40,648 nucleotides of DNA. Source: Pyrinomonadaceae bacterium. GTDB taxonomy: Bacteria > Acidobacteriota > Blastocatellia > Pyrinomonadales > Pyrinomonadaceae. The translations under genes were made by a program, and so were the position numbers. Position 1 is the first letter of the stretch. Every line of letters starts with the position of its first letter. Below are positions 951-25,918 of the stretch, piece by piece. The notes beneath the pieces are model-generated. The model ran no database searches. It saw only the letters and a program-made list of their open reading frames with translations, and was not told the origin of the DNA. The stretch is taken from positions 1 to 40,648 of the forward strand of contig JBKKAS010000027.1 of the NCBI GenBank assembly GCA_046714595.1. The letters are read 5' to 3'.

Positions 951-967
951 ATTGTTATCACGCGAGT

Positions 968-2444: not shown

Positions 2445-2582
2445 GAGAAGGGGAGAACGGGAGACGGAAGACCGGAGACCGGAGACGGGAACGCCTGAAT
2501 ATCCGGTACTACCGTCCGGTCGCAAGGGACGACGGCATGACTGATCTCTCCCCGTCTCACCGTCTCCCCTTCTCCCCTTCTC
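2445..2582. repeat. 138-nt imperfect inverted repeat of purine-rich GGAGA(A/C) words and their complement; possible bidirectional terminator between convergent genes
   Basis: Left arm 2445-2468 'gagaaggggagaacgggagacgga' pairs with right arm 2559-2582 'accgtctccccttctccccttctc', 22 of 23 consecutive positions paired. Inner pairing 'gagacggg' (2482-2489) with 'cccgtctc' (2551-2558). The arms are 7-8 nt periodic. The right arm overlaps the stop codon of the minus-strand kinase (2581-2583). No U-tract. Confidence 0.7.
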
Positions 2583-7800: not shown

Positions 7801-9941
7801 GCGACTTCGCCCGAAGCATCCACCGTGATCGATCGCGTAAGATCGCCCTTGGTCACGGCGGTCGCCACGTCGGCCATTGCACGCACCTGATTCGTCAGGT
7901 TTGCCGCGAGTTGGTTCACGTTGTCGGTAAGATCGCGCCACGTTCCGGATGCACCGGGTACGTTCGCCTGGCCGCCGAGCTCGCCTTCGATACCGACCTC
8001 GCGGGCAACGGTCGTCACCTGATCGGCGAATGTTGCGAGCGTGTCGATCATCGCGTTGATCGTGTCGGCAAGCTCGGCGATCTCGCCGAGAGCCTCGACC
8101 TCGAGTTTACGATTCAGGTTTCCGTTAGCGACGGCCGTCACGACGCGTGCGATACCGCGTACCTGCGTCGTAAGGTTCGACGCCATGAAGTTCACATTGT
8201 CGGTCAGATCCTTCCACGTTCCCGACACGCCCTTAACCTGCGCCTGTCCGCCGAGCTTTCCTTCGGTACCGACCTCGCGGGCAACGCGCGTCACCTCGGA
8301 CGCAAACGAGTTGAGCTGATCGACCATCGTATTGATCGTGATCTTGAGCTCGAGAATTTCACCCTGCACGTCGACGGTAATCTTCTTAGAAAGGTCACCG
8401 TTCGCCACGGCCGTTGTGACCGTCGCGATGTTACGCACTTGCGACGTCAGGTTCGACGCCATAAAGTTCACGTTGTCGGTAAGATCTTTCCACGTTCCCG
8501 AAACACCACGAACGACCGCCTGTCCTCCAAGGATTCCTTCAGTACACACATCACGCGCAACGCGCGTAACTTCCGACGCGAACGACGACAGTTGGTCCAC
8601 CATCGTGTTGATCGTATTCTTGAGTTCGAGAATTTCACCCTTAACGTCCACCGTGATCTTCTTCGACAAGTCGCCGTTGGCCACGGCGGTCGTCACGTCG
8701 GCGATGTTACGCACCTGCGATGTAAGGTTCGACGCCATGAAGTTCACGTTATCCGTCAGATCTTTCCATGTTCCCGATACACCTAGCACCTCGGCCTGTC
8801 CGCCAAGCTTTCCTTCCGTACCGACCTCGCGGGCCACACGCGTTACCTCCGAGGCGAACGACGACAACTGATCCACCATCGTGTTGATCGTGTCTTTCAG
8901 CTCGAGAATTTCGCCCTGCACATCCACCGTGATCTTTTTAGACAAGTCGCCGTTCGCCACGGCGGTCGTCACGGCGGCAATATTTCGCACCTGACCGGTA
9001 AGGTTCGACGCCATGAAGTTCACGTTGTCGGTAAGATCCTTCCACACACCGCCAACGCCCTTGACCTCGGCCTGGCCGCCGAGCTTTCCTTCGGTACCGA
9101 CCTCGCGCGCCACACGGGTAACCTCGGATGCGAACGAATTGAGCTGATCCACCATTGTGTTCAGCGTGTCTTTAAGCTCAAGAATTTCGCCGCGCACCTG
9201 CACGGTGATCTTTTTCGACAAGTCACCGTTCGCAACGGATGTCGCGACCTCGGCGATGTTACGCACCTGCGCCGTCAGGTTGCTGGTCATGAGGTTTACG
9301 TTGTCAGTCAGATCTTTCCAGACACCGGCAACGCCCTCGACCTCGGCTTCGCCGCCGAGCTTTCCTTCGGTCCCGACCTCGCGCGCAACGCGCGTAACCT
9401 CGGACGCGAAAGAGTTGAGCTGGTCGACCATTGTGTTGAGCGTATTTTTTAGCTCAAGAATTTCTCCGCGCACATCCACCGTGATCTTTTTCGACAGATC
9501 GCCGTTTGCCACAGACGTTGCCACGTCGGCGATGTTTCTCACCTGACCGGTGAGGTTGCTAGTCATGAGATTTACGTTGTCGGTCAGGTCTTTCCACACG
9601 CCGGCAACGCCCTTAACGTCAGCCTGTCCGCCGAGCTTTCCTTCGGTTCCCACCTCACGAGCAACGCGTGTAACTTCCGATGCAAATGACGACAATTGAT
9701 CCACCATCGTGTTGATGGTGTCTTTCAGTTCGAGGATCTCGCCGCGAACGTTAACGGTGATCTTTTTCGAGAGGTCGCCATTCGCCACGGCGGTCGTAAC
9801 TTCAGCGATGTTGCGAACCTGACCGGTGAGGTTGTTCGCCATCAGGTTCACGTTGTCGGTCAAGTCTTTCCATGTTCCCGACACGCCCTTAACTTCAGCC
9901 TGGCCGCCGAGCTTTCCTTCGGTACCGACCTCGCGAGCCAC
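4887..9941 (-). CDS. Poly-HAMP hybrid histidine kinase, C-terminal 1684-aa part (HAMP repeats-GAF-coiled coil-HisKA-HATPase_c-REC-REC-REC). Probably one gene with 9963..10778, interrupted by an in-frame TAG
   Basis: Eight 92-aa repeats of the type '[60 protein letters not shown]...[16 protein letters not shown]'. These are followed by a GAF-like region, a long Q/E-rich coiled coil and the H-box '[15 protein letters not shown]'. ATPase boxes are 'VRDTGIGI' and 'GGTGLGLSI'. Three receiver domains follow ('LIIEDD..LDLTLPG', 'LLVEDD..VDLMLPD', '[16 protein letters not shown]'). The track start is a GTG inside repeat sequence ('VAREVG'), so it is probably not a genuine N-terminus. Confidence 0.85.
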
Positions 9942-10238
9942 ACGCGTAAGTTCGGACGCGAACTAGGAAAGCTGGTCGACCATTGTGTTGATCGTGTTTT
10001 TGAGTTCGAGGATCTCGCCCTTAACGTCGACGGTGATCTTTTTCGAAAGGTCGCCGTTTGCTACGGCCGTTGTCACTTCGGCGATGTTGCGGACCTGGCC
10101 GGTGAGGTTGTTGGCCATCAGGTTTACGTTGTCGGTAAGGTCCTTCCACGTTCCCGATACACCCTTGACCTGAGCCTGTCCGCCGAGCTTTCCTTCGGTA
10201 CCCACTTCACGGGCGACGCGGGTTACCTCGGAAGCGAA
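8031..10238 (-). repeat. Tandem array of eight 276-bp (92-codon) coding repeats; more divergent units flank it on both sides
   Basis: Unit boundaries taken at 'FASE': 10238, 9962, 9686, 9410, 9134, 8858, 8582, 8306 and 8030. The period is exactly 276 nt. The first two units are nearly identical at protein level. A divergent unit ('[20 protein letters not shown]..') follows to about 7755. Confidence 0.9.
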
Positions 10239-10778
10239 AGCTCCAAGCTGCGTCACCATCGTGTTCACGGTCCTACCGGTCTTCAGGAATTCGCCCTTGA
10301 GCGGACGGTCATCTATTTCCAGATTAAAATTCTGAGAAAGATCACCTTGCGCCACGGCACCGATGACGCGGGCGACCTCCGTCGTCGGCTGCGCTAGATC
10401 GGTGATAAGAGTGTTTACGGAATTTATGCACGAGGCCCATCCACCCGATGGGTTTGTCAGGGTCGCACGCTGCGCGATCTTACCTTCCTTACCCACGACC
10501 TCGCTGATTCGGCCGAGCTCGGCGCACAAGTTATCATTTTTCTCGATGACCTCGTTCAGCGCGTCGTAAATTTGTCCCGTCACTCCTTCAGCTCTCGTCG
10601 GAATCCGTCTGGAAAAGTCGCCGTTTTTTACGGCCGACAAAACGGTCAACAAAAGCTCGTGATCGAGGTAATCGGATTTGGAGTGTCCGTTGATTCGGCG
10701 GTTTTCCCCGTTCTTCGGGCCAGAACTTCCGCCGCGCTTCTTGGTGCGCGCGGCCTTGCCCGCTGTCAGAGCAGCCAT
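9963..10778 (-). CDS. Poly-HAMP kinase N-terminal fragment (271 aa), ending at an in-frame TAG that replaces a repeat-consensus Ser codon
   Basis: ATG at 10778 is preceded by GGAG (rc 'ggagaaaataaaATG'). There is no TM segment. The protein has degenerate HAMP-like segments, then a full 92-aa repeat that stops at '..NTMVDQLS*', where every other repeat reads 'DQLSSFASE'. It is in the same frame as 4887..9941, with 7 sense codons in between. Confidence 0.8.
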
Positions 10779-12658: not shown

Positions 12659-13370
12659 TTAAGCGTAGGAGTGCAGGCCAGGCAAGAGATAGCTTACTCC
12701 CAGATAGGTGAATATCACGAATAGAAAAGCGACGATGGCGAAATAGGCGGAGTGTCGTCCCTTCCATCCGTACGCAATCCGCGAGTGTAGAAATCCGGCG
12801 TATGTAAGCCACGCGACCAGCGCTGCGAGTACCAGAATTAGCCCGGCAAGCGGTAACGAGAGTGCCGCGATCAGCCTGAAATGTTCGCGACGCATTATCA
12901 GCAGCGTCGTGATCCCCGCTCCAAACGCAAAAGCAAGGCTCAGGTCATACAGATTCGCGAACGGGACATAGCGAAATGCCCACGGCATATCCGCAGCACT
13001 GCGTCCCTGGCCGATAAATATATCGAGCTCGCGATCGTACGCCGCAACCCATCTGACGAGCCAGCTCGACCGATTGAAGAAAAACTCCAAGCGTCGCGGC
13101 CCACAGACCCAGACGTTCGGCCAGTCGAAACGGAGCGTAGAAATTTGTGAGATAAAAAACCGCCGCGATCAAGTACGATGCGAGCCCGAGCATCATCAGA
13201 GCGCTATCAGAAATAAACCGGTCGCCACCGAAACTGATGCGCCCCGCAACAAGCAGAAGCGATCCACCAACCGCAATCACCGCCGGCAGAAACGAGCCGA
13301 GTGTCGCGAGCGGGGTGTCTCGTCTCTCACTTGCTAGTACCAACGGCTGTTCGAGGACTTCCTGATTCAT
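12659..13370 (-). pseudogene. ccsA/resC-like cytochrome c biogenesis (System II) gene, frameshifted and apparently lacking the Trp-rich WWD motif
   Basis: Two overlapping ORFs (12945..13370 and 12659..13090) in different frames. Removing one base from the A5 run at 13080-13084 joins them into '..LGLWAATLGVFFNRSSWLVRWVAAY..'. The C-terminus 'WLTYAGFLHSRIAYGWKGRHSAYFAIVAFLFVIFTYLGVSYLLPGLHSYA' matches the conserved CcsA end. 'PFANLYDLSLAFAFG' matches the 'P.sNlYEsl.f' segment. No 'WG.YW.WDPKE'-type motif is present in any frame. Confidence 0.6.
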
Positions 13371-13623
13371 GATGTCTGCGCGCAGGAGTCACAACCCGGG
13401 GCAGTATTTTTTCTTCGAGGGTGGACATTATTTATGTGCGGAAAAGCTGTCGACCAGAGGTCGTAGGAGTCGTGTGCAACAAGCTTTCGCGGCGGTAACA
13501 CGTTTTCGGCCTGGATAACACACCGTAAACGCAGCCGCGGTTTTAACGGAGTAGACGTGTGAAATAACCCGTATTAAGGTTCGGATGTTTTCATTAAACT
13601 TAGCAGGAGGCGTCGGATCTTCA

Positions 13624-13639
13624 TGTGACGGCTGTCACA
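13624..13639. promoter_or_regulatory. Perfect CRP-type palindrome TGTGA-N6-TCACA upstream of the plus-strand cytochrome operon
   Basis: 'TGTGAcggctgTCACA', centred at 13631.5 and ending 61 nt before the ATG at 13700. The hexamer 'TATCAT' at 13661-13666 is placed as a -10 box for a class-II (-41.5) arrangement. Confidence 0.6.
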
Positions 13640-13699
13640 CTCCATCGCCGGATACTGGAATATCATTAAGTAATAAACTGGAAAAGGCCTCACACGTCA

Positions 13700-14866
13700 A
13701 TGCTAAAACGCTCGGCCACCACGAACATGATGGTCCGGGCATCGGTCGTAGCTCTTTTCTCCTTTCTTGCGACGATATTTCTTTTTTATTCCGATGATCT
13801 GGTAGTCAGCGTTTTGTCTCAAGCTCGTGCCCGGCGCGCGCCAAAATACTCGGAATTTCCGCACGACTCGAAGGCTCATCAGCTAGCTTGCTCTTCCTGT
13901 CACAATTTCCCGTCAGCCAACTGGAATACGGTTCGGGCTGCGCCGGCAGCGATTCCCGACATCACCGATTACCCGAAACACGAGTCTTGCTTGAACTGTC
14001 ATCGGCAGCAGTTCTTCCGCGGGGCCAGGCCGGCGATCTGCTCGATCTGCCACACGAATCCGAGTCCACGCGACAGCGCGCGCCACCCTTTTCCAAATCC
14101 GAGAGAGATCTTTGACGCATCGCCGAAGGGCAAGCAGGCAGTTTCGGATTTTGAAATTAGCTTTCCGCATGCCAAGCACATCGACATCGTAACGGCGGCA
14201 GGTGCTACGCGTTCGACATTTCGAAACGCTTCTTTTTCTACGGGACGTATGGCTGAGGAGAGCTGCTCGGTTTGTCACACGACAGTCCATCCGCAGGGGT
14301 CCTCGACCGAAGAGTATGTGACCAACCCGCCGGCGACACTTGGCGATGGCTTCTGGCTCAAGAAAGGCACGTTCAAATCGGTGCCCCTCGGCCACACCGC
14401 ATGTTTCACCTGTCATTCACAGGATTCGGGTATCGCCCCGCCGCCGTCCGACTGCGCGACGTGTCACAAGATCAAACAAGCGGCACCCGCCGCCGACTTC
14501 GATGCGAAACTTGCCGCCCGGATCGGCGTGATGGACCGCATCACCCTGGATGCCTGGCGGAAACGGGATTCCTCCGGGACCTTTCGACATGAATTTCCTA
14601 GCCACACCGAGCTAAGCTGCGACACCTGTCACAACGTTCAGACGATGAACACCCTTGACGCGAAGACGAAGCGCGTCGGCGTCGCGTCGTGCAGCATGTG
14701 CCACGTTACGGCGACCGTAGACGATGGAGGTGCGATGAATTTCGAAGTTCAGTCGCGCAAAGCCAACGCAGCTTTCCAGTGCACTAAATGCCATGTGGTT
14801 TTCGGCTCGAATCCGATACCTCCGTCGCATATTCAAGCGATTATTGAGAGCGGTGGTAAACCGTAA
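13700..14866 (+). CDS. Nonahaem c-type cytochrome, three c7/c3-type trihaem modules, N-terminal signal/anchor
   Basis: Nine CXXCH motifs: CSSCH, CLNCH, CSICH, CSVCH, CFTCH, CATCH, CDTCH, CSMCH, CTKCH. 'F.H..H....C..CH' signatures recur ('FPHDSKAHQLACSSCH', 'FRHEFPSHTELSCDTCH'), as in Geobacter PpcA-type c7. Hydrophobic N-terminus 'VVALFSFLATIFLF'. An alternative start at 13727 is possible. Confidence 0.9.
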   Translation: MLKRSATTNMMVRASVVALFSFLATIFLFYSDDLVVSVLSQARARRAPKYSEFPHDSKAHQLACSSCHNFPSANWNTVRAAPAAIPDITDYPKHESCLNCHRQQFFRGARPAICSICHTNPSPRDSARHPFPNPREIFDASPKGKQAVSDFEISFPHAKHIDIVTAAGATRSTFRNASFSTGRMAEESCSVCHTTVHPQGSSTEEYVTNPPATLGDGFWLKKGTFKSVPLGHTACFTCHSQDSGIAPPPSDCATCHKIKQAAPAADFDAKLAARIGVMDRITLDAWRKRDSSGTFRHEFPSHTELSCDTCHNVQTMNTLDAKTKRVGVASCSMCHVTATVDDGGAMNFEVQSRKANAAFQCTKCHVVFGSNPIPPSHIQAIIESGGKP

Positions 14867-14867
14867 A

Positions 14868-15731
14868 ATGATAACCGGTGCCAAAAACAATCCTGATTCG
14901 GATCTGCGTCCTCGACGGGATACCGGGGTTGTTGCGCTCGGTGCCCTGTTTCTCGTGTTCTGCCTGATCGTCCTGGCTTATGCCGCTGAACCCCCGGAGA
15001 TAACGGGCCACGAGCTGCCGCCGCCGAACGAAATGCCGACTCAGGATTTTTCGCGATTCCGCCATGACACGGCGCAACATAACAGAATGCCGTGCCTCGT
15101 TTGCCATGTCAGAAGCGACAAGAGCACGTCGCCGAAAATGCCCGGGCACATTCCATGTTCGTCATGTCACGCGCAAGAGTTCGCGGCGGGTAATCAACAT
15201 CCCATCTGCTCCATCTGTCATACTGCGACCGATGTAAAGAAATTTCCGCCGCTCCGGAGTTTCAATGCCGTCTTCGACCACGGACGGCACCTGCGGCAAA
15301 CGAACTGCGCGACATGTCATAAGCCGACGAGGCGTGGTGTAGCGCTGTCGATACCATCGCGGGTGAATGCTCACACGACGTGTTTTCAGTGTCATGGTCC
15401 GCAAACTATGGTGGGCGGCAAGAATATAGGGTCGTGCTCGACGTGTCACCAGCCCGGGCGACTTGTGCGAACCGCGGAATCTGCACGCGCGTTCGCGGTC
15501 AACTTCAGCCATACGGAACATTCGCGAAAAGGGCTAAGGTGCTCGGAATGTCACACAGTTCGCTCGGGAATGCGGCGCGGGGCGCAGGTCACGTCGCCGT
15601 TAGCATCGATGCACTTTGCTCGCGCCGGTACCACCAGTTGCGCGGCGTGTCATAACAATCGACGCGCATTTGGCGGAAACGATTTTTCGGATTGTAGAAA
15701 ATGTCACGAGGGAAGAACGTTCAAGTTTTGA
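14868..15731 (+). CDS. Nonahaem c-type cytochrome, three c7/c3-type trihaem modules (paralogue of the upstream gene)
   Basis: Nine CXXCH motifs: CLVCH, CSSCH, CSICH, CATCH, CFQCH, CSTCH, CSECH, CAACH, CRKCH. Signatures 'FRHDTAQHNRMPCLVCH', 'FDHGRHLRQTNCATCH' and 'FSHTEHSRKGLRCSECH'. TM/signal segment 'VVALGALFLVFCLIVLAYA'. I place the start at ATG 14868, 1 nt after the upstream stop; the track's 14793 start overlaps the previous gene. Confidence 0.9.
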   Translation: MITGAKNNPDSDLRPRRDTGVVALGALFLVFCLIVLAYAAEPPEITGHELPPPNEMPTQDFSRFRHDTAQHNRMPCLVCHVRSDKSTSPKMPGHIPCSSCHAQEFAAGNQHPICSICHTATDVKKFPPLRSFNAVFDHGRHLRQTNCATCHKPTRRGVALSIPSRVNAHTTCFQCHGPQTMVGGKNIGSCSTCHQPGRLVRTAESARAFAVNFSHTEHSRKGLRCSECHTVRSGMRRGAQVTSPLASMHFARAGTTSCAACHNNRRAFGGNDFSDCRKCHEGRTFKF

Positions 15732-15910
15732 GGCTATGATCGCGAATAAGTTCACGACCATGTTGTATTTTCTCGCACCCGTCGCACCGGGAGTAGAGGC
15801 GGGTTCGGTGGTTTCGCGGGTAAATAAGCGGTTTTGCCAACTCGAACGAGTGGGCATGATGGTTGCACAAGCAACAGTGACAGATCATCACGGGTCAGAC
15901 GCCCGCTGTC

Positions 15911-16255
15911 ATGCTTATGACTATCAATCGTATAAAACTACTCGCGACTATCGCCTTCGTGCTGCCGATGGCAGCATTTTCTGTTTTTCGAACAACACCG
16001 GCCGCTGCGATCACGTTGGCATTGGACGATCCTGCAGCCGCATACAAAACAAAATGCGCAATGTGCCACAGTCCGAAAGCAGAAAAGTTTTATGATCCTG
16101 CCATGTCGCAGGACCAGCAGATAGAGGCCGTCCTGAAGGGCAAGAAAGGTGAGAAACCCCCTCACATGCCCGCGTTCGAGCCGAAAGGTATGACGGCAGA
16201 AGAGGCGAAGGCGCTGGTTGAGTATATGCAAGGATTGAGAAAGCCGGCGCCGTGA
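15911..16255 (+). CDS. Monohaem class-I cytochrome c (small periplasmic carrier; same position in the parts list as MtoD)
   Basis: 114 aa with a signal peptide ('LLATIAFVLPMAAFSVF..AAA'), a single 'CAMCH', and a downstream 'PPHMPAF' that offers a candidate Met sixth ligand. Confidence 0.85.
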   Translation: MLMTINRIKLLATIAFVLPMAAFSVFRTTPAAAITLALDDPAAAYKTKCAMCHSPKAEKFYDPAMSQDQQIEAVLKGKKGEKPPHMPAFEPKGMTAEEAKALVEYMQGLRKPAP

Positions 16256-16419
16256 TGATCTGACAACTCTGCAGCAGGCAGTGAGGTCAGCATCGCCTTT
16301 GGGCAGCTTCGCGCAACGACCGATCGGTCTTGCAAAAAGCTAACCATTGGCGGTGCTGAACCGCATTCTAAAAACGCGGTCAGTGTCGGATCGGGACTCT
16401 CATCGGCTTGGAGACAATT

Positions 16420-18042
16420 ATGAGCGAAGAAACCGGGAAGACCGCGGACGATCGATCCAGCGAAACAGTTTTGCAGACGCACGGCTTGCTGCGCAATTAC
16501 GTAAGCTTTCTCGGCATCGCGCTCGCTGCGGCGAGCCTGACGAGTATTGCGCTTCTGGTTTTGATCGAGCTATCCTCGGGCGACGACAATCCGTATACAG
16601 TCCTTGTCACATACATTCTTCTGCCGGCGGTGCTCGCGTTCGGCTTATTTCTTGTCTTCGCCGGTATGCTGCTGGAAAGGCGGCGCCGACGTAAGGATCC
16701 CGATGGGCACATCACACCGTATCCGATACTGGATCTGAATGATCCGTCACGCCGCCGGACGGTCATCGTCTTTCTTTGCCTCTCGTTTGTATTTCTTTTT
16801 CTCAGCGCTTTTGGCAGCTACCGGGCATACGAATATACCGAGTCGGTCGCCTTCTGCGGAACGCAGTGTCACGCTGTGATGAAGCCTGAGTTCGTCGCGT
16901 ACAATGCATCGCCACACGCCCGCGTGAGCTGCGTCGAATGCCACGTCGGTCACGGACCGGAATGGTACGTCCGCTCGAAGCTCAACGGGATGCACCAACT
17001 GTACGCCGTGACATTCAACACATACGATCGCCCGATCAAGACGCCGCTGCACAATATGCGTCCGGCGGATCAGACCTGTGCGAAATGTCATTGGCCGGAA
17101 AAATTTCACGGCGACCAGCTCAAGGTTTTCAATCATTTCGGATTTGACGAAGTAAGCTCGCTTAATCAAACCCGAATGCTGATCAAGGTCGGCGGCGGCA
17201 GCCCGGATTCGGGTGAGGTCGGCGGTGTCCACTGGCACATGAATGTCGCCAATGAGATCACGTACATCGCGACGGACGAGAAAAGACAGGATATTCCGTG
17301 GGTAAGGTTGAAGGATCGTGACGGCAGGATCACAGAGTACGTTTCCAAGGGCGCGTCGCTGACGAAGCAGCAGATCGAACAATCCCCTCAGCGAAAGATG
17401 GATTGCATCGACTGTCACAACCGCCCGGCGCATATTTATCTTTCGCCAAATGAAGCGGTAGACCGCTCGCTGACGGCCGGTAAGCTTGATGTGTCACTTC
17501 CCTACATAAAGGCCCGTGCGGTCGATGTCCTGTCCGCGCCGTACACAACAACTGAAGAGGCTCTCGCGGCGATCGAGAAAGGGTTGACGGACTTTTATCG
17601 AACGACGTACCCCGAGATTTTCACCACTAAGACGGGATCGATAACGGGTGCCGTCGCTGAAGTAAAACAGATCTATCAGACCAACTTCTTCCCGGAAATG
17701 AAGACCGACTGGCGGGCCCACATCAACAACATCGGCCACTACAACGCCCAGGGATGCTTCCGATGCCACGACGGCCAGCATGTCAGTCCCGAGGGCAAGA
17801 TGATCCGCAATGACTGTAGCATCTGCCATACGACGATCGACCAGACATTCGGCGGCAAGACGTTCCAGGCCGCGAGCCGGACGTTCCAGCATCCTGTAAA
17901 TCTTGGCGACAAAAATACCTGGCAGTGCGCCGCCTGCCATAAAGGTGACCGGCCGTTCAAACATCCGTTGAATCTCGGCAACATCTCGCAGTTTCAATGT
18001 AGCGAATGCCATACGGGTGGCTTTGAGAAGGTGAAGTTTTGA
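16420..18042 (+). CDS. Membrane-anchored multihaem cytochrome with NapC/NirT-like N-terminal module (putative quinol dehydrogenase), 7 CXXCH + 1 CX3CH
   Basis: Three predicted TM helices come first. Then 'FCGTQCHAVMKPEFVAYNASPHARVSCVECHVGHG....DQTCAKCH', which follows the NapC/NirT layout. Further motifs: CIDCH, CFRCH, CSICH, CAACH, CSECH. I prefer ATG 16420 (GGAG 7 nt upstream) over the TTG at 16408. Confidence 0.85.
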   Translation: MSEETGKTADDRSSETVLQTHGLLRNYVSFLGIALAAASLTSIALLVLIELSSGDDNPYTVLVTYILLPAVLAFGLFLVFAGMLLERRRRRKDPDGHITPYPILDLNDPSRRRTVIVFLCLSFVFLFLSAFGSYRAYEYTESVAFCGTQCHAVMKPEFVAYNASPHARVSCVECHVGHGPEWYVRSKLNGMHQLYAVTFNTYDRPIKTPLHNMRPADQTCAKCHWPEKFHGDQLKVFNHFGFDEVSSLNQTRMLIKVGGGSPDSGEVGGVHWHMNVANEITYIATDEKRQDIPWVRLKDRDGRITEYVSKGASLTKQQIEQSPQRKMDCIDCHNRPAHIYLSPNEAVDRSLTAGKLDVSLPYIKARAVDVLSAPYTTTEEALAAIEKGLTDFYRTTYPEIFTTKTGSITGAVAEVKQIYQTNFFPEMKTDWRAHINNIGHYNAQGCFRCHDGQHVSPEGKMIRNDCSICHTTIDQTFGGKTFQAASRTFQHPVNLGDKNTWQCAACHKGDRPFKHPLNLGNISQFQCSECHTGGFEKVKF

Positions 18043-18061
18043 TTTGATGTAGAGCGGCGAC

Positions 18062-18093
18062 AAAAAAAACGGCCGGATCATCCGGCCGTTTTC
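18062..18093. terminator. Bidirectional rho-independent terminator between the two convergent cytochrome operons
   Basis: 'aaaaaaaa CGGCCGGA tca TCCGGCCG tttt': a GC-rich 8-9 bp stem and 3-nt loop, flanked by an A8 tract and a T4 tract. Confidence 0.85.
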
Positions 18094-18119
18094 GCAAAGG
18101 GTGCGCGTCTTATCGCTCT

Positions 18120-20180
18120 CTAACGATCAACCGCGGCCTTGCCGAAATAGATTCGCAGCGAAGTATATGGTAGGTGGGCGTTGTAATTCTGTGGATTACC
18201 TAAGCGTTCCTTGTAATCGTAGTACTGGTATCCGAGATTCCAGTCGATATTACTCGTTAGTTTTATAGCGAGCCTAACCTCGGGCGATTGAAAGCGCATC
18301 GGGTACGAAGTGATTATGTCTTGCGCCCGCGTTGACACACGGCCACCCTGGCCGCGGTCGTCGTTTATCCGGTAACTCGCGAAAACCGAAACCCGTTTGA
18401 CCGGTCTGGCGTGGATATCGAAGAAGAAACTGCTGTCACGCACAAAGTACTGGCTGATCCCGGCAAGCCGGGCACCTGCGACGGGGACGATGATGTCCGT
18501 TACCGCGTTGAGGTGCTGGAAGGTATAGCCACCGCTGAGAGTGATCTCGGGTGCGGGTGTCCAGTCGACGCTGGCTGCAAAAGTTCGGCTGCGTGTTTCG
18601 GAGGTGAAGTTGACGGCTGGCATCTCGACCGAGCGCGACGGATTATCGTTACTGCGGCTTATGAACGACGCATTGATCGAAAACGTCTTTATATTCGCTC
18701 GCGTACGAAACCGGAAATTAGTGAAATCGTAATTCGCGAGCCGGGTGAAAACGTTATCCGCCTTTCCGTGTTCGGCATCGAAGAAGATCACCCAATTATT
18801 TACCGGCTTTGCCTTGAAGCCGGCGATAAGCCCGTGGGTTTGGTTGGCGAACTCTTCCGAGATGATGGTCGTGATCGGGGTCGGACTTACATTCCTGTTC
18901 GAACCCTCGATCTGCACTTTCCTATCGGTGAATCTGTAGCCGATGTTGAACCCGAACCGGTTGTTGACCTGGTAGTCCGCCTCGATCAAGTTCGTCGCTC
19001 TGCGATACGCCGTGACGCGGTGAGCGAGCGTGCTGGTCAACACAGTCGGCAGGCCAGTACCTGCAGCATTCCTTCGTCTTAGCTCTTCATAAAAAGCATT
19101 TCCGCCGCTGATATTGAACTGGTCGAACGTAAACGTGTTCGAGATCCTAAACTTCTCCGTCACCCGGAACGTCATGCCGAGATCGCCGCGCGTTTGCGGA
19201 CGTTTCGCCTGACCCGAGATCGCAAACAAGTCGAGGTCTACCTGGTTATTTGAATTATCCCGGCCCGTGATCCGTTCGCTGAGGTTAAATTCGGTCGACG
19301 TCTGCGAATGGATCAAACGTGCGGTGAAGTCCAGTTTGCTTGCGAATGTTCGCTGCGCGTGAAACTGCACAAAATTCGTTGTGCCCTCGATTGGATTTCG
19401 CCGCTCGAAAGTAAACAGCCTCGGATTGTTCGTCGGATTGTTTCCGAGATTAATGCCGTCGATGAAATAGCTCGTTCGCTCATTGAATTTACGAAAGCCG
19501 TAATTCAAACCCAAATTGAAGCCGTACGCTTTGCCCTCGACACCCGCGCGGAAATCGTCTGACCTGGAATCGACATTCGACAAGATGCCGAACTCGTCGC
19601 CGTATGCGCGCGTCGTAAAACCGCCGTCGCCGCCGGTTCGGTTGAAGGAGTAACCCAAGCGAAATCTCAACGATTCGCGTTCGGGGAAGATACTAAGATC
19701 AAAATCGCCAAAGCCGTGATCGGTATTGGCATTATGCTGATTCAGCGCGTGATTGGTGAGATTGTTGAAATACTTCACGCGACGGATATTCGAATCGAAC
19801 CGATAGAACCCTCTGCGCTCGAGATTGAATCGAAACATGCCGCTCGGGTCACCGCCCCAGCCGCTTGTTGTCACCAGGGCGGAATCAAAAAAGTTTCCAT
19901 GCCCTTCTTTGTTCTCGATCAGGAAGCTTGAATCGAACACGCGAAAGCCGGGCCGGTAGTTCAAATCGCTGCGGTACTTGTTGTCGCTGCCATTTACGTG
20001 CACGCCGCGCAAGCCGAGCTCGATCGTGGATGTGATCTCGGCTCCGCTTGATGACGTGCTGGTGCTAGATGGCGTCGGGGATGGAGTTGGTGATTGCGCC
20101 GACGACGTTTGCGGCAGCATCGTACAGATTACGAAGATCAAAGCCGTAAACAGAATGTATCTATCGCGAGCGCAATTCAT
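18120..20180 (-). CDS. Outer-membrane beta-barrel protein, MtrB/PioB-family-like (porin partner of the decahaem cytochrome)
   Basis: Start chosen at ATG 20180 ('MNCARDRYILFTALIFVICTMLPQTSSAQS', signal peptide). It is preceded by GGAG and lies 16 nt after the stop of the upstream decahaem gene; the track's 20231 start overlaps that gene. A PT/S-rich linker is followed by about 620 aa rich in Y/F/N/G/R/D with an alternating pattern. The N-terminal 'IELGLRGVHVNGSDNKYRSDLNYRPGF' resembles the start of the MtrB/PioB family. At 686 aa it is close in size to MtrB (about 700 aa). Confidence 0.65.
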   Translation of the reverse strand: MNCARDRYILFTALIFVICTMLPQTSSAQSPTPSPTPSSTSTSSSGAEITSTIELGLRGVHVNGSDNKYRSDLNYRPGFRVFDSSFLIENKEGHGNFFDSALVTTSGWGGDPSGMFRFNLERRGFYRFDSNIRRVKYFNNLTNHALNQHNANTDHGFGDFDLSIFPERESLRFRLGYSFNRTGGDGGFTTRAYGDEFGILSNVDSRSDDFRAGVEGKAYGFNLGLNYGFRKFNERTSYFIDGINLGNNPTNNPRLFTFERRNPIEGTTNFVQFHAQRTFASKLDFTARLIHSQTSTEFNLSERITGRDNSNNQVDLDLFAISGQAKRPQTRGDLGMTFRVTEKFRISNTFTFDQFNISGGNAFYEELRRRNAAGTGLPTVLTSTLAHRVTAYRRATNLIEADYQVNNRFGFNIGYRFTDRKVQIEGSNRNVSPTPITTIISEEFANQTHGLIAGFKAKPVNNWVIFFDAEHGKADNVFTRLANYDFTNFRFRTRANIKTFSINASFISRSNDNPSRSVEMPAVNFTSETRSRTFAASVDWTPAPEITLSGGYTFQHLNAVTDIIVPVAGARLAGISQYFVRDSSFFFDIHARPVKRVSVFASYRINDDRGQGGRVSTRAQDIITSYPMRFQSPEVRLAIKLTSNIDWNLGYQYYDYKERLGNPQNYNAHLPYTSLRIYFGKAAVDR

Positions 20181-20196
20181 TTCTTCTCCGTTCACA

Positions 20197-21216
20197 CTAT
20201 CTGAAAAATACCGGGCTAGAGTTCGACCCATGGATCGCGGAATGGCATATCGTGCAATTTTGATATCTCAGCACGGCTTGGTTGTGGAACGACGGCGTGT
20301 CGGGGGCAAACTGATCGGTAATGCTGCTGTGACACTCCAGGCATAGCTGTCGTACCGAGCTTCGCTTCAACATTTTCGGATTAGCGGAGCCATGCGGCGT
20401 GTGACAGGCAGAACATCCCTCGACCTTCAACGGGGCGTGTTCAAAAACGAATGGGCCCTGTTTGTTGCTGTGACATTTCACGCAGGATGCGTCGGCGCCG
20501 ACAGCGAGCTTGACCTGTTTCTGTTCGAAACCGCCATGCGGGTTATGGCAATCGCTGCAGTTCATCGCGCCTTCAAGGACTTTATGGTGAAACGGTTTGG
20601 TGAATTGGGCTTTCGTTTCCGTGTGACACGACATGCAGAGCTGGGGCTCGTTCGAACGGAGCATCGCGCGGGTCGCCTGGCCCGGCTTCTGCGCCGCAAC
20701 ATCACCGACAAACGTGATCGAACCCGCTTTCAACGTGCCGTGATCCGGCCCGTGCGCGGTATGGCACTCGGTACAGCCGACGTTGTTACGCCAATGCTCG
20801 CCGCGTCGAAAATTGTTGTGATTCTCTTTACCTGCGTGACATGCCAAACACGTCTCGGCCGCTGCCTTTGAATCGAGGCGTTTGAATGAAATTATTTTAG
20901 TCTTATCGCCGGCCGACTCGACGTGCGCTTTGCCGGGTCCGTGACACGATTCGCATCCGACGACCTTTCCTTTCCACGACGCGACCGTGTGCAGCTTGCC
21001 GTGTTTTGTTCCTTCAAAGCTTTTGAACTGGGGTTCGTGGCAGGCGGCGCAGGTCTCAGTGCCAACGTAGTTGTCGTCTAACGTTCCGGATGTTAGGGCG
21101 ATTTGGCCGGCGCTGTTTGCGCGTTCGGACACGGTGCCAAGGGCCAGCCATACCGCTAACGAAAGTGAAATGATCGAGAGCAAACCGAGCTTGATATGTT
21201 TGTTGGAAAACGGCAT
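20197..21216 (-). CDS. Periplasmic decahaem c-type cytochrome, MtrA/DmsE/PioA/MtoA family
   Basis: 339 aa with a signal peptide and exactly ten CXXCH: CAACH, CESCH, CLACH, CTECH, CMSCH, CSDCH, CVKCH, CSACH, CLECH, CTICH. The blocks 'CSDCHNPHGG', 'FEHAPLKVEGCSACHTPHGS', 'QLCLECHS' and the C-terminal 'CHSAIHGSN' match my recollection of Shewanella MtrA (333 aa). Confidence 0.88.
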   Translation of the reverse strand: MPFSNKHIKLGLLSIISLSLAVWLALGTVSERANSAGQIALTSGTLDDNYVGTETCAACHEPQFKSFEGTKHGKLHTVASWKGKVVGCESCHGPGKAHVESAGDKTKIISFKRLDSKAAAETCLACHAGKENHNNFRRGEHWRNNVGCTECHTAHGPDHGTLKAGSITFVGDVAAQKPGQATRAMLRSNEPQLCMSCHTETKAQFTKPFHHKVLEGAMNCSDCHNPHGGFEQKQVKLAVGADASCVKCHSNKQGPFVFEHAPLKVEGCSACHTPHGSANPKMLKRSSVRQLCLECHSSITDQFAPDTPSFHNQAVLRYQNCTICHSAIHGSNSSPVFFR

Positions 21217-21308
21217 GGTTCCCTTCGTTCTGGCGGAATCTCACCGGTAAGCCGAAGGCTTCGGGTGACTCAGGTAACAATATCTTACGCCCGTCGAGCA
21301 GGCTCGTA

Positions 21309-21324
21309 TGTGTTATACGTCACA
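21309..21324. promoter_or_regulatory. CRP-type box TGTGT-N6-TCACA upstream of the mtrA-like/mtrB-like operon
   Basis: 'TGTGTtatacgTCACA', one mismatch from TGTGA-N6-TCACA. It lies 93-108 nt upstream of the ATG at 21216 (minus strand), between the regulator gene and the decahaem gene. Confidence 0.5.
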
Positions 21325-21371: not shown

Positions 21372-22106
21372 TCATCCGTGTCCATTTCCGTGCTTTGCTC
21401 CGATCGCCGCCTTTAGTCGGGCTCGATCAGGAATGCATAGCTCGGTTTTTGAAAATGTTATCAGTTGACGATCCTTGAAGTCCTTAAAAAGGCGGGTCAC
21501 GGTCTCACGGCTGGAACCGATCATTTCCCCGATCTCGCCGTGTGTATGCGTCGGCGAAATTCTAACCAAGTCCCCGTTCGGCGAACGCTCACACCACTGG
21601 AGAAGTAGCCGGGCGAGCTTATCACCTGCCGACGCGGAAAGCCCCAGTGAGCAGATCTGCAGATGCGCTTTATGATAGTTACTGCTCAGCTGTTTCAAGG
21701 CGTTTAGTGCCGCTTCGTGATGTGTTCTGACAAAATCAAGGAAGCTGCTTTTGTTGATGAAGCTAACGCGGCAAGAGTCCGACGCCTGCGCCGTTTTTTC
21801 ATGCGGCACATCCGAGATAACGGCACTCAGCCCGAGGACCTCGCCTGGTTCGGCGATACGAAGAATGATCGTTTTACCTTCTTCCGAATAGGTGGATAAT
21901 TTGACGCGACCGTCGCACAGCAAGTACACGCCGTGTGGTGGTTGGCCTTCCATAAAAATGGTCGAGCCACGAGGAAACACGTGCGATACCTTCAGCGATT
22001 GTAGTTCCGCAAAGGCAGGCTCTGGCAGGTTGCAAAAAAACGTTTCGCGACGTATTTTGCAGTCCGCGCATGTTCCCGGAATTCTAAGGGGTTCCGAGAT
22101 CTTCAT
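21372..22106 (-). CDS. Crp/Fnr-family transcriptional regulator with FNR-like Cys set and CRP-like recognition helix
   Basis: 244 aa. The N-terminal 'C13ADC16KIRRETFFC25' plus 'ASDSC112RVSF' parallels E. coli FNR Cys20/23/29/122. A cNMP-binding-like beta-roll is present ('FMEGQPPHGVYLLCDGRVKL'). The HTH 'IGEMIGSSRETVTRLFKDF' parallels CRP 'IGQIVGCSRETVGRILKML'. Confidence 0.85.
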   Translation of the reverse strand: MKISEPLRIPGTCADCKIRRETFFCNLPEPAFAELQSLKVSHVFPRGSTIFMEGQPPHGVYLLCDGRVKLSTYSEEGKTIILRIAEPGEVLGLSAVISDVPHEKTAQASDSCRVSFINKSSFLDFVRTHHEAALNALKQLSSNYHKAHLQICSLGLSASAGDKLARLLLQWCERSPNGDLVRISPTHTHGEIGEMIGSSRETVTRLFKDFKDRQLITFSKTELCIPDRARLKAAIGAKHGNGHG

Positions 22107-22475: not shown

Positions 22476-23966
22476 GTGACGACCAATTCATTGCGCGGTG
22501 GTATCGAATCGGATATATTCATGAGCAATACCCGTCGTCCCCGCTCGCCGGAGAAGTTCAAGCTAATGAAAAGCTCGACCTCGAAGATCCTTATAGTCGA
22601 TGATGAATCCGGCGTCCGGTTTGTGCTGAGCGAAGCCCTGCGCTCGTGGGGCTACGAATCGATCCAGGCGGGCAGCGTTGCTGAGGCGGTGACCTTGTTC
22701 GGGGAAGAACGTCCCACGGTGGCACTTCTCGACATCGATCTTCCTGACGGTTCAGGCCTGGACATTCTGAACAAGATCAAAGAACTGCAGCCGGCAACAG
22801 TCGTCATAATGATAACGGGAAATGTAAATGTTCCGAATCTTATGACCGCACTCAAAGGGGGAGCTCACGATTTCATTGGCAAGCCAATCCATCTGGAGGA
22901 GCTTCGCATAACATTGCGGAACGCGCTCGAGACCCGCGAGTTACGTCGTGAAGTGCGACATCTAAGAGACGAACGGGCACATCAATTCAGTCTTGAACAG
23001 ATACTCGGTGAATCTGCACCGATGAAAAAAGCGGTCGAGCTCACGCGGCGCGTCGCCCGCTCTGATGTCACGGCGATCCTGCTTCAGGGAGAAACGGGAA
23101 CGGGCAAGGATTTGTTTGCCCGGGCCATTCACCAGGCTTCCGACCGGGCTAATGCGCCGTATCTGGCGATCAACTGTGCCGCACTGCCGGCAACACTTAT
23201 CGAATCGGAATTGTTCGGTTACGAAAAAGGCGCGTTCACCGATGCGAAGCAAAAGAAAGAAGGATTGTTCGAGCAAGCACAGGGGGGAACGATCTTCCTG
23301 GACGAGATCGGAGAGATGGAACTTAGCCTTCAGGCGAAGCTTCTTCGCGTTTTGGAAGAAGGTGTGTTTCGCCGAGTCGGAGGTTTAAAAGATCTGCCGC
23401 TCGATGTGCGTATCGTTGCGGCATCGAACCAGAATTTGAAAAAGGCGAGCGAGAACGGAACCTTCAGGCTCGACTTGTTCTTCCGCCTGTCGGTAATCCA
23501 GATCGACATTCCGCCCCTTCGCGAGCGCGGTAACGACATCCTGATCCTTGCGCAGCACTACATCGACAAAGTAAATCTGAAACGCGGCGTCCGACAGTTA
23601 AAAGGACTTGGTCCAGACGTCGCTTCGATCTTTAAAGGTTATAGATGGACCGGAAACGTACGCGAGCTGAGGAACGTGATCGAGCGCGCCTCGATACTCG
23701 AGGACGGTGAGTTCGTCACTGCAGCTCATTTACCCGCCGATATGATCGGAGCTACCACCGGCGGACCGAACGGCCGGTCAGGGGTCGTACTTCCCCCGGA
23801 GGGCATTCCGCTCGAGACGGTTGAGGTCGACCTCGCGCGACAAGCGTTAGCCAGAACGGGAGGCAATCTGACGCGAGCTGCAAAGCTCCTTGATATCTCG
23901 CGCGATCAACTCCGGTACAAGCTCAAGAAAGCCGGAGACCTGGGTGCCGATCCCGAGATAGTGTGA
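22476..23966 (+). CDS. Sigma54-dependent response regulator (NtrC family: REC-AAA+-Fis HTH)
   Basis: REC domain ('[23 protein letters not shown]'). AAA+ domain with Walker A 'GETGTGKD', 'GAFTDA' in place of GAFTGA, and Walker B '[11 protein letters not shown]'. C-terminal HTH '[23 protein letters not shown]'. The track start is a GTG; ATG 22521 or ATG 22566 ('[13 protein letters not shown]') are plausible alternative starts. Confidence 0.9.
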
Positions 23967-23977
23967 TCTAACTGAAT

Positions 23978-25918
23978 ATGCTGCCCGCACGCCAGAGTAA
24001 TACCGAAGCATCCACGGATCAGCCCCGCGGACAAACTTTAAAAGAACTATCCGACATTAAGTTCGCGCTCGACGAGGCGGCAATAGTCGCTCGGACAGAC
24101 GAGCGCGGGATAATAACTTACGTTAACGACAAGTTCTGCGATATATCCAAGTACAGTCGCGAAGAGCTTGTCGGACAAGACCACCGCATCATCAATTCCG
24201 GCTATCATTCCGAAGACTTCATCCGGGACATCTGGACGACCATAGCCAGCGGCAAAACGTGGCATGGCGAACTTCGTAACCGGGCAAAAGACGATTCGAT
24301 TTACTGGGTATACACGACGATCGTTCCATTCCTGGACGAACGCGGCAAGCCGTTCCAATACATTGCCATTCGCTTTGACATCACCGAGCGTAAACTCGCC
24401 GAAGAGCGCATCCGACAGCAGGCATCGCTTCTCGACAACGCGCAGGACGCGATCCTCGTCTGCGACCCAAATTACCAGATCCTGTATTGGAACAAGGGCG
24501 CCGAGCGCATCTATGGCTGGCAGCTGGACGAGGTATTAGGCAGGAACATTTGCGATGTTTTGTTTGGGGGTGACAGACGCCCGATCGAAGAGGCGCACAG
24601 TGCCTTACAAGACGCCGGCGAACTAAAGTCGGAGGCTCGACATAGGACGAAAAGCGGAAGAAAACTGATCGTGGAAAGTCGTTGGACACTCGGGGCCAAC
24701 GGGCAGGAAAAGCCTGATCATGTTCTCATGATCAACACCGATGTAACCGAACAGAAACGAGCCGAGGAGCACCTGCTTCGGGCACAGCGGATGGAATCAA
24801 TTGGCACACTTGCCGGAGGCATTGCACACGATCTGAACAATATTCTCTCGCCCATTGTGATGTCGGTCGAAATGCTTCGGTTAAAGTACGGCGACGCAGA
24901 GACACAAAGATGGCTTTCGCTGATCGGCGAAAACGCCGAACGAGGCGCGGACCTGATAAAGCAGGTGCTGACATTTGCCCGCGGCCTCGAGGGTGAACGC
25001 ATACCTGTTCAGGTAAAGCATATCGTCAAGGATCTGGTCAGCGTCCTCCAGGAAACGCTGCCGAAATCGATCACACTAAAGTACGATGTCGGCACGCCGT
25101 GGCTTATCCCGGCCGATCCGTCTCAGATCCATCAGGTTCTGATGAATGCATGCCTGAATGCTCGTGACGCCATGCCGAACGGCGGCTCGCTGCGGATCGG
25201 GGTAGAAAATGTGCGCGTCGACGAGAGCTATGTTCGCATGAATCCCGAAGCGAATTTGGGCGGTTATGTTCAGCTCATCATTGAAGACACGGGTACAGGA
25301 ATGTCGCAGGAAACGGTCAAGCGAATTTTCGATCCGTTCTTTACTTCAAAGGCCCTCGGACACGGAACAGGACTCGGTCTTTCGACGGCCCTGACCATAG
25401 TGAAAAGTCATAGCGGATTCATAAGCGTCTATAGCGAGCCGGGTCGCGGAACTCGGTTTTCGATCAATCTTCCGGCGATGGAGGATCAGGTCGAGCCACC
25501 GGCGGTGGAAGCGGTTTCCCAATATCCGAGAGGACACGGCGAATTGATCCTCTTAGTCGATGACGAAATAAACATCATTCAGATCACGACCGCTACGCTG
25601 GAACTTTTTGGCTATCGAACGGTTTCGGCCGCTGATGGTACGAAAGGCCTGGCCGCTTACGCCCGGCAGCAGGACGAGATAGATCTCGTCATAACCGACA
25701 TGTCGATGCCGGACATGGACGGTCCGTCAATGATAAAAGAGCTCCGGAGGATCGACCCCGGAATCAACATTATCGGCATGAGCGGCCTTATGAATACCGA
25801 GCAAGCGGCGGAACTCGAACGCTTTGGCGTCAGCGCGTTTCTTACGAAGCCCTTCACTGCGGAAAAGCTCCTGACCGCCATCTCCAATGCCTTGGCGACT
25901 GATACCGCCGCACTTTAA
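23978..25918 (+). CDS. PAS/PAC-PAS hybrid sensor histidine kinase with C-terminal receiver
   Basis: Two PAS-like regions ('IITYVNDKFCDISKYSREELVGQDHRIINS', 'ILYWNKGAERIYGWQLDEVLGRN'). H-box 'GGIAHDLNNILSPI'; ATPase boxes 'IEDTGTGM' and 'GTGLGLS'. Receiver 'ILLVDDE..VITDMSMPDMDG..TKP'. It starts 11 nt after the response regulator gene. Confidence 0.9.
   Translation: MLPARQSNTEASTDQPRGQTLKELSDIKFALDEAAIVARTDERGIITYVNDKFCDISKYSREELVGQDHRIINSGYHSEDFIRDIWTTIASGKTWHGELRNRAKDDSIYWVYTTIVPFLDERGKPFQYIAIRFDITERKLAEERIRQQASLLDNAQDAILVCDPNYQILYWNKGAERIYGWQLDEVLGRNICDVLFGGDRRPIEEAHSALQDAGELKSEARHRTKSGRKLIVESRWTLGANGQEKPDHVLMINTDVTEQKRAEEHLLRAQRMESIGTLAGGIAHDLNNILSPIVMSVEMLRLKYGDAETQRWLSLIGENAERGADLIKQVLTFARGLEGERIPVQVKHIVKDLVSVLQETLPKSITLKYDVGTPWLIPADPSQIHQVLMNACLNARDAMPNGGSLRIGVENVRVDESYVRMNPEANLGGYVQLIIEDTGTGMSQETVKRIFDPFFTSKALGHGTGLGLSTALTIVKSHSGFISVYSEPGRGTRFSINLPAMEDQVEPPAVEAVSQYPRGHGELILLVDDEINIIQITTATLELFGYRTVSAADGTKGLAAYARQQDEIDLVITDMSMPDMDGPSMIKELRRIDPGINIIGMSGLMNTEQAAELERFGVSAFLTKPFTAEKLLTAISNALATDTAAL

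Follow-up and report, generated by a model that had tools for sequence, protein, structure and literature searches.

A cluster of six genes in a 40,648-nucleotide (nt) stretch of DNA from a Pyrinomonadaceae bacterium (Acidobacteriota; Blastocatellia; assembly GCA_046714595.1, contig JBKKAS010000027.1, positions 1 to 40,648; this whole stretch is referred to as the window) appears to encode a multihaem electron conduit that crosses the cell envelope, is characteristic of the Blastocatellia and, as we believe with fair though far from full confidence, most probably carries electrons outward from menaquinol under oxygen limitation. The cluster comprises, on the plus strand, genes A and B for two nonahaem cytochromes, gene C for a monohaem cytochrome and gene D for a putative ImcH-family inner-membrane cytochrome and, convergent with these on the minus strand, genes F and E for an MtrA-like decahaem cytochrome and a large barrel that is MtrB-like by structure. 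This view builds on family assignments, the fold of the barrel, synteny, purifying selection and DNA motifs, and it is on this basis that the order in which the proteins exchange electrons, their localisation, the pairing of regulator and operator and the direction of electron flow are proposed.

By translation, A and B hold nine CXXCH motifs each, C one, D seven together with one CX3CH (CGTQCH), F ten and the barrel E none, that is 36 plus one in total, which reproduces the distribution given in a model-made first-pass annotation of this DNA. Among the open reading frames (ORFs) of at least 60 residues in the rest of the window, CXXCH is restricted to one 99-residue ORF and two overlapping or antisense ORFs with a single motif each, and the concentration of haem motifs is therefore no effect of composition. 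The start of gene B (14868..15731, plus strand) is most likely the ATG at 14868, one base past the stop of gene A (13700..14866, plus strand), giving 287 residues, while its ORF opens at 14793; likewise, gene D (ORF 16408..18042, plus strand) most likely starts at the ATG at 16420, with GGAG in front, giving 540 residues. Gene E (18120..20180, minus strand; ORF to 20231) starts at the ATG at 20180, which is preceded by GGAGAAGAA and matches the 686-residue barrel length annotated before, and the gap from F to E amounts to 16 nt. Between the convergent genes D and E stands a hairpin at 18066..18092 (AAAACGGCCGGA-TCA-TCCGGCCGTTTT) with a GC-rich stem of 12 bp that is flanked by an A-run and, at its other end, by a T-run. 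Relative to shuffled sequence, its folding reaches z-scores of -3.9 (plus strand) and -5.7 (minus strand), and the shared bidirectional intrinsic terminator that had been described there is confirmed.

The outer-membrane part of the conduit would be formed by F and E. Gene F (20197..21216, minus strand) encodes a 339-residue protein of the DmsE/MtrA/MtoA type with ten CXXCH motifs and an N-terminal hydrophobic segment, which scores 238.3 bits on TIGR03508, the DmsE/MtrA family model (curated cutoff 192.2), and retrieves MtrA of the structure 6R2Q (6r2q_A, a chain mislabelled in the PDB title list) with an E-value of 1.1e-32; on the GSU2203 model it scores 219 bits, under the cutoff of 325. These matches show F to be a true DmsE/MtrA-family member, and the earlier naming of an MtrA-like decahaem is borne out by them as well as by the barrel gene, which comes next on its 3' side in all 69 related loci compared. 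Tandem decahaem-barrel duplicates, or a second and more divergent decahaem right after the regulator gene, are seen in some relatives (L012, 556-7415; L078, 8934-15803; L019, 5405-6379; L068, 966-1943).

The protein encoded by E has a signal peptide and a mature part devoid of cysteine. It gave no match to Pfam or TIGR03509 at E<=0.01, so that the MtrB/PioB hidden Markov models (HMMs; PF11854 / TIGR03509) failed directly, and MtrB was not recovered among PDB sequences by phmmer or by profiles of 45 (A1) or 65 (A2) sequences; a weak match (4e-6) to the NCBIfam GSU2204 family was obtained. An AlphaFold (AF2) model computed from 45 homologues is confident and all-beta (predicted local distance difference test, pLDDT, 82; predicted template modelling score, pTM, 0.69), with about 26-28 strands by DSSP, and a Foldseek comparison with solved structures returned MtrB (6r2q_B) on top (E 4e-15; template modelling score 0.61/0.65), followed by 22-strand TonB-dependent receptors at 0.35-0.44. 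Profile search of 1.84 billion representatives yielded 1456 relatives; among 64 distant full-length ones (19-30% identity, each at E<=1.4e-42 to the A1 profile), PF11854 was matched by 4 (best 5.6e-10), TIGR03509 by 2 and the GSU2204 model by 19; a rescan of 20 distant relatives for PF11854 gave one marginal match only. It has been stated in a review that the GSU2204 family consists of MtrB/PioB-type barrels (PMC13188914), and GSU2203, the neighbour of GSU2204 in Geobacter, is the decahaem OmcK (PMC4070692). Because HMMs and profile searches against solved MtrB fail, homology with MtrB rests on fold and transitive matches, and it is concluded from the model and these matches that E probably represents a deep branch of the MtrB/PioB/GSU2204 barrel superfamily that current family HMMs miss. 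The MtrB likeness claimed in the first-pass annotation thus stands with regard to fold and fails with regard to direct sequence models.

At the inner-membrane end, gene D is assigned, from its sequence, to the ImcH-family quinol oxidases, with a layout collinear with Geobacter sulfurreducens GSU3259. ImcH has been defined by three transmembrane (TM) helices, a CX3CH motif right after the third helix, five to nine further CXXCH motifs and NapC/NirT similarity over the third helix and the first haems (PMC4251993; PMC6295460). In D, three hydrophobic segments precede the first haem (hydropathy peaks at 35-53, 65-83 and 118-136; the helices of GSU3259 lie at 13-35, 45-67 and 100-122), as had been noticed before along with the seven plus one haem motifs, and the CX3CH at 150 follows the third segment immediately. 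The motifs stand at 150, 175, 224, 333, 450, 470, 507 and 531 in D and at 132, 156, 205, 311, 428, 448 and 486 in GSU3259, and their spacing, a comparison of motif and TM positions rather than of residues, is 24/25, 49, 109, 117, 20 and 37 (+24) against 24, 49, 106, 117, 20 and 38; in this respect D is identical to the Acidobacteria homologue OLE50779.1, which is catalogued as ImcH in Table S3 of PMC6295460. NapC/NirT similarity (PF03264, the N-terminal region) covers residues 114-221 (1.2e-11), and the PDB returned NrfH (2j7a, 3e-7) over about 110 residues.

Two other identities considered for D were discarded. A CymA-type tetrahaem NapC/NirT protein, as proposed in the first-pass annotation, would have one TM helix and four haems, whereas D has three helices and eight haem motifs, and its scores are far below cutoff (TIGR02161, 18.5 against 310.6; NapC, 18.9 against 349); the CymA role has been replaced by membership of the ImcH family. 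An NrfHA-type nitrite reductase is excluded, since none of the six proteins has the CXXCK catalytic haem motif. Geobacter ImcH has been described as oxidising menaquinol for extracellular acceptors (PMC4251993) and as passing electrons to the trihaem c7 protein PpcA (preprint 10.1101/2023.05.03.539133), a transfer that fits the pairing of imcH with poly-c7 genes observed here. Up to 2018, ImcH homologues had been reported solely from Fe(III) reducers (PMC6295460), and our literature search returned no case of ImcH in an iron oxidiser.

The two nonahaem proteins could bridge the envelope between these ends. Protein B, which consists of three trihaem modules behind a signal peptide, scores 51.8 bits on TIGR04257 (cutoff 40) and matches GSU1996, the dodecahaem poly-c7 cytochrome of Geobacter (3ov0), over three stretches at 2.4e-17. 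Protein A, a distant paralogue of B with 388 residues, has c7/c3-type repeats and begins with a hydrophobic stretch that is either an anchor or a signal; it matches c7/c3 models of Pfam only (Cytochrome_C7, 2.4e-14), falls below the TIGR04257 cutoff and retrieved no PDB sequence, and because of this it is considered a looser poly-c7 member than B. The first-pass annotation had described both as membrane-anchored poly-c7 proteins: the c7 repeats are found in each, and anchoring is uncertain for B, which has a signal-peptidase-like AYA|A site. Gene C (15911..16255, plus strand) codes for a 114-residue class-I monohaem cytochrome c with a signal peptide (Pfam Cytochrome_CBB3, 5.6e-11). At E<=0.1 its sole return from the PDB, which presumably holds the solved MtoD structure, was the cytochrome c subunit of a bc1 complex, and C is best classified, on sequence, as a generic class-I monohaem cytochrome c with no detectable MtoD relationship. 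The same gene occurs in two or three tandem copies downstream of imcH in loci L021, L026 and L042. The idea that all parts of an Mto system are present is not supported: the MtoD role of C is lost at this threshold, D is not of CymA type and the barrel fails the MtrB/PioB sequence models. The family searches proposed at the outset had a divided outcome, positive with DmsE/MtrA for F and with c7 for A and B, negative with MtrB/PioB for E and with the NapC/NirT model cutoff for D.

The arrangement recurs in related genomes. In a genome scan with one genome per GTDB species, the barrel was detected in 212 species-level genomes, the best 80 of which provided the related loci. All 80 are metagenome-assembled genomes (MAGs). 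Their labels read Pyrinomonadaceae, Chloracidobacterium sp., Blastocatellaceae/Blastocatellia or unclassified Acidobacteriota, except for one MAG each under Acidisarcina sp., Actinomycetota and unclassified bacterium. The genome belongs to the Acidobacteriota, as the first-pass annotation had sensed, and no cultured isolate turned up among the cluster-member names. The conserved order is Crp/Fnr regulator, decahaem and barrel, then the convergent series imcH, monohaem c, nonahaem B and nonahaem A, and finally resB, ccsB and a gene for a TPR protein, so that synteny, a survey of which had been proposed for Acidobacteriota genomes, is seen across Blastocatellia MAGs. The decahaem lies immediately upstream of the barrel without exception (69/69), the regulator is located within 3 kb upstream of the barrel and on the same strand in 63 of 69, and D, C, B and A are all present in 34 of the 46 loci with enough flank, imcH being convergent in 37. 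Compared with the two closest relatives, the ratio of nonsynonymous to synonymous substitution rates (dN/dS) is 0.06-0.16 for the six conduit genes wherever dS could be estimated, and the cluster is under purifying selection. No other multihaem ORF occurs in the window that could encode an MtrC/OmcA-like protein, confirming within these 40.6 kb the absence of MtrC remarked upon earlier, and no MtrC-like surface cytochrome is added in the related loci inspected, none being encoded between barrel and imcH.

These data also bear on whether an envelope-spanning conduit is encoded at all. The genes might instead serve a chain confined to the periplasm that has a redox function or detoxifies compounds (nitrite, sulfite or metalloids, for instance), beside which an unrelated large porin came to lie by chance; the lack of a direct MtrB/PioB HMM match and the resemblance of D to NrfH over about 110 residues would agree with such a chain, but neither a CXXCK catalytic haem nor a reductase gene is present, the decahaem-barrel pair is invariant, the best structural match of the barrel is MtrB, and relatives of the barrel match the MtrB_PioB and GSU2204 models. 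An explanation of this kind is considered very improbable.

Regulatory motifs suggest how the conduit may be controlled. The interval delimited in the first-pass annotation, 13624 to 21324, coincides at both ends with the exact ends of two CRP-type palindromes, namely a perfect TGTGA-N6-TCACA (TGTGACGGCTGTCACA, 13624..13639, plus strand) situated 61 nt before gene A and a box with one mismatch (TGTGACGTATAACACA, 21309..21324, minus strand) upstream of gene F. Hexamers resembling -10 elements start 22 nt past each box (TATCAT at 13661-13666 for A; TAAGAT at 21287-21282 for F), a spacing that corresponds to the geometry of class II CRP/FNR-dependent promoters. With at most one mismatch allowed, the box precedes the F orthologue in 72 of 76 related loci and the A orthologue in 39 of 41, and the window contains four matches where 0.8 would be expected. 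One of them, at 34042 inside thyA, is taken as chance, and another one-mismatch box (14618-14633, plus strand), within the 3' end of gene A and 250 nt before B, may be an internal promoter or chance. Neither operon is preceded by a canonical FNR box (TTGAT-N4-ATCAA), two-mismatch matches to which lie inside genes only, and for this reason the operator is called CRP-type.

The likely reader of both boxes is a Crp/Fnr-family protein encoded at 21372..22106 (minus strand), which contains Cys13, Cys16, Cys25, Cys64 and Cys112 and an SRETVTR recognition helix. Across 58 orthologues, the first four cysteines are essentially invariant and Cys112 occurs in 54, and the recognition helix, which resembles the RE..R motif of CRP, is conserved as well. 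This protein is predicted to be an FNR-like redox or oxygen sensor, perhaps with an Fe-S cluster, that reads a CRP-like site, and it likely acts as activator at both boxes. As the outer units A-B and F-E share one operator, their co-expression, on which the first-pass annotation had made the pathway depend, is to be expected from the DNA. A sigma-54-type promoter (GGGCATGATGGTTGCA, 15852..15867, plus strand), with -24 GG and -12 GC kept, lies between B and C, which are 179 nt apart, and ends 44 nt before gene C; among related regions, 36 of 57 have the motif (TGGCAC-N5-TTGCW) at a distance of 60-83 nt before the monohaem gene, as compared with 1 of 52 control regions upstream of imcH. Candidate controllers are an NtrC-type sigma-54 activator (22476-23966, plus strand) and a PAS hybrid histidine kinase (23978-25918, plus strand), which adjoin the regulator in the window and are linked to the cluster, on either side, in many relatives; this two-component system may drive the promoter of C-D. 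The plus-strand genes, which had been taken as a single operon, are present as described and probably form two transcription units, A-B and C-D.

Maturation of cytochrome c is where the window departs from its relatives. In the latter, gene A is separated from the TPR gene by intact resB and ccsB, which serve the maturation of cytochrome c by System II, whereas the window retains degraded remnants at this place (12662..13428, minus strand) and is shorter than every related locus by about 2.4 kb. Of resB, which encodes 500-590 residues in relatives, about the first 22 codons are left; ccsB (538 residues in relatives) carries an extra T in a T-run near 13078, which shifts the frame, and has lost residues 183-482 in frame, including the WGRYWGWD haem-handling (WWD) motif. 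Either a second maturation system exists elsewhere in the genome or the cluster has been newly orphaned. It could be argued from these lesions, in genes that are intact in relatives, that the cluster is a relic in this genome, with no holo-cytochromes formed and the conduit silent or decaying. Nevertheless, none of the six conduit genes is damaged or lacks a haem motif, their dN/dS is low, and loss of all cytochrome c maturation would disable aerobic respiration too, which makes a second system elsewhere likely; the extra T could be a sequencing error, although the two large deletions are harder to explain in this way. A relic is accordingly regarded as quite unlikely.

With regard to function, the most probable sequence of events under outward flow would begin with oxidation of menaquinol by D at the inner membrane. 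Electrons would then move to the c7-type modules of A and B, possibly with the monohaem C as a branch, and A and B would reduce the decahaem F, which, threaded through the MtrB-like barrel E, would deliver them at the cell surface, no MtrC-type partner being encoded in the cluster. Extracellular Fe(III)/Mn(IV), humic or other redox-active compounds could be the acceptors used when oxygen is scarce. Units A-B and F-E would be switched by the regulator with the cysteine cluster at its class II TGTGA-N6-TCACA boxes, and C-D by the sigma-54 promoter under the linked NtrC-type two-component system. The outward direction is preferred because of the ImcH assignment, the oxygen-sensor-like regulator, the absence of any sign of autotrophy in the window and the additional genes that relatives carry between barrel and imcH. 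The latter are of two types, a protein of 640-680 residues in which nine haems are fused to a cytochrome b561-type membrane domain, that is the CbcL architecture, and a bc-type module of a cytochrome b/b6 gene with a nine-haem cytochrome; the locus therefore gathers Geobacter-type quinone-pool modules around an Mtr-type outer-membrane core. Inserts of these types were noted in L024 (12287-14230) and L023 (11960-14409) and also in L019, L021, L036, L040, L052, L065, L075 and L080, and the window has neither.

A number of points weigh against the outward reading. The Mto and Pio systems, which oxidise Fe(II), typically combine an MtrC-less two-component MtrAB core with a class-I monohaem c, and an FNR-like regulator suits oxidation under microaerobic conditions no less than reduction under anaerobic ones. 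Neither the MtrB/PioB HMMs nor the profile searches against solved MtrB recognise the barrel, the destruction of resB and ccsB means that a functional conduit in this organism needs another maturation system, and all 80 related loci are from MAGs. Moreover, the gene for an MtrC-like partner could lie elsewhere, which is the case in Desulfobacterota (PMC12133095).

Inward or bidirectional flow is on the whole viewed as unlikely. Were the same hardware run inward, which strikes us as rather doubtful, the extracellular electron donors of F and E would be Fe(II), Mn(II), reduced humics or minerals, and the electrons would pass through A and B to C and a terminal oxidase, as in MtoAB-MtoD or PioAB, with ImcH as a side branch or engaged in reverse flow. 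Cultured Blastocatellia are aerobes, which is counted for this direction, and Shewanella MtrB carries a CXXC motif that the cysteine-free mature barrel E lacks; the monohaem class-I c is furthermore conserved in the cluster, up to the three tandem copies found among L021, L026 and L042. The cluster is also without MtrC, like MtoAB and PioAB (PMC8805035; PMC10654088). However, the only role to which ImcH homologues have been linked to date is the oxidation of quinol in reducers (PMC6295460), with no counter-example in the literature search, reverse electron flow is mainly a need of autotrophs and nothing in the window suggests autotrophy, C has no detectable similarity to MtoD, and the CbcL-like and bc-type genes added by relatives have Geobacter counterparts, CbcL and CbcBA, that serve acceptor reduction.

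Several genes further to the left were also recorded. The minus strand encodes, at 4887-9941, a hybrid histidine kinase of 1684 residues with eight HAMP repeats, a GAF domain and three receiver domains, preceded by a separate HAMP protein of 271 residues (9963-10778, minus strand) that may be its split N-terminus. Another GAF hybrid kinase occupies 2581-4860, and a DUF1800/DUF1501 gene pair at the left edge (21-2443, plus strand) is unrelated to the cluster.

New here are the conserved operator pair beside a Cys-rich Crp/Fnr regulator, the conserved sigma-54 promoter before C-D and the decay of resB and ccsB in the window only. The literature search returned no description of the Blastocatellia cluster, of imcH linkage to an mtrAB-like pair or of a shared operator. 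A survey of 2018 had stated that no such linkage was found (PMC6295460), probably because the barrel escapes HMMs. As to the earlier remark that the arrangement was not known as characterised, imcH beside an mtrAB-like pair is the very linkage that survey did not find; the families themselves are all known. It may be tentatively suggested, as a generalisation about which we are somewhat doubtful, that Blastocatellia, which abound in soil and are regarded as aerobic oligotrophs, have in common a hybrid wire under the control of oxygen and signals (ImcH to poly-c7 to an MtrAB-like core without a surface cytochrome) for respiring extracellular iron, manganese or humics in anoxic soil microsites, and that this capacity is undercounted in soil surveys, given that the deep-branching barrel is missed by HMMs and iron-gene pipelines. 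If functional, the cluster would endow an entire class of widespread soil Acidobacteria (212 species-level genomes) with an anaerobic respiration linked to minerals or humics, and it would show that an MtrAB-type outer-membrane core can be connected to a quinol oxidase of ImcH type. In that case, a barrel subfamily invisible to Pfam/NCBIfam MtrB/PioB models would also require inventories of extracellular electron transfer (EET) genes in soil to be revised. The operator pair and the sigma-54 promoter offer handles on when the pathway switches on, and the interest of these findings is mainly for soil biogeochemistry and annotation pipelines.

Among known systems, MtoAB-MtoD-CymA of Sideroxydans lithotrophicus and PioAB of Rhodopseudomonas palustris resemble the present cluster in pairing a large barrel gene with a decahaem of this family, in lacking MtrC and in having a monohaem class-I c in the cluster. 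In contrast to them, the quinone-pool protein is here of ImcH type (three TM helices, eight haems) rather than CymA or MtoC, no MtoD match is detectable for the monohaem c, there are two nonahaem poly-c7 proteins in addition, the barrel has diverged beyond the reach of MtrB/PioB HMMs, and the host belongs to a heterotrophic Acidobacteriota lineage in which the likely direction is outward. Compared with MtrCAB-CymA of Shewanella (6R2Q), F resembles MtrA (1e-32), the model of E resembles MtrB (template modelling score 0.61-0.65) and a cytochrome-in-barrel arrangement is likewise predicted, whereas the cluster has no extracellular MtrC/OmcA, no CymA and no periplasmic carriers of STC/FccA type, and the identity of E to MtrB is about 12%. 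Other EET clusters of Acidobacteriota, namely the Bryobacterales MtrCAB 'Group 5' (PMC8805035), the Holophaga porin-cytochromes (PMC7399161) and EET1/EET2 of peat Terriglobia (preprint 10.64898/2026.05.27.727921), come from the same phylum and equally combine multihaem cytochromes and an outer-membrane barrel in syntenic clusters; their hosts, however, are Terriglobia or Holophagae, they possess extracellular cytochromes, and none has been described with imcH or a Crp/Fnr operator pair, or in Blastocatellia. The OmcK (GSU2203)-GSU2204 pair of Geobacter is approached by F (219 bits on the GSU2203 model, under its cutoff of 325) and weakly by E, which differs from the GSU2204 family in having no CXXCH. 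In Geobacter, imcH is monocistronic and does not stand beside a conduit, and the conduits (Omb/Oma/Omc, Ext) include surface cytochromes; on the other hand, there are parallels with the G. sulfurreducens set of ImcH/CbcL/CbcBA and PpcA/GSU1996, as D is collinear with ImcH, B matches GSU1996, and relatives of the cluster add CbcL-like and bc-type genes.

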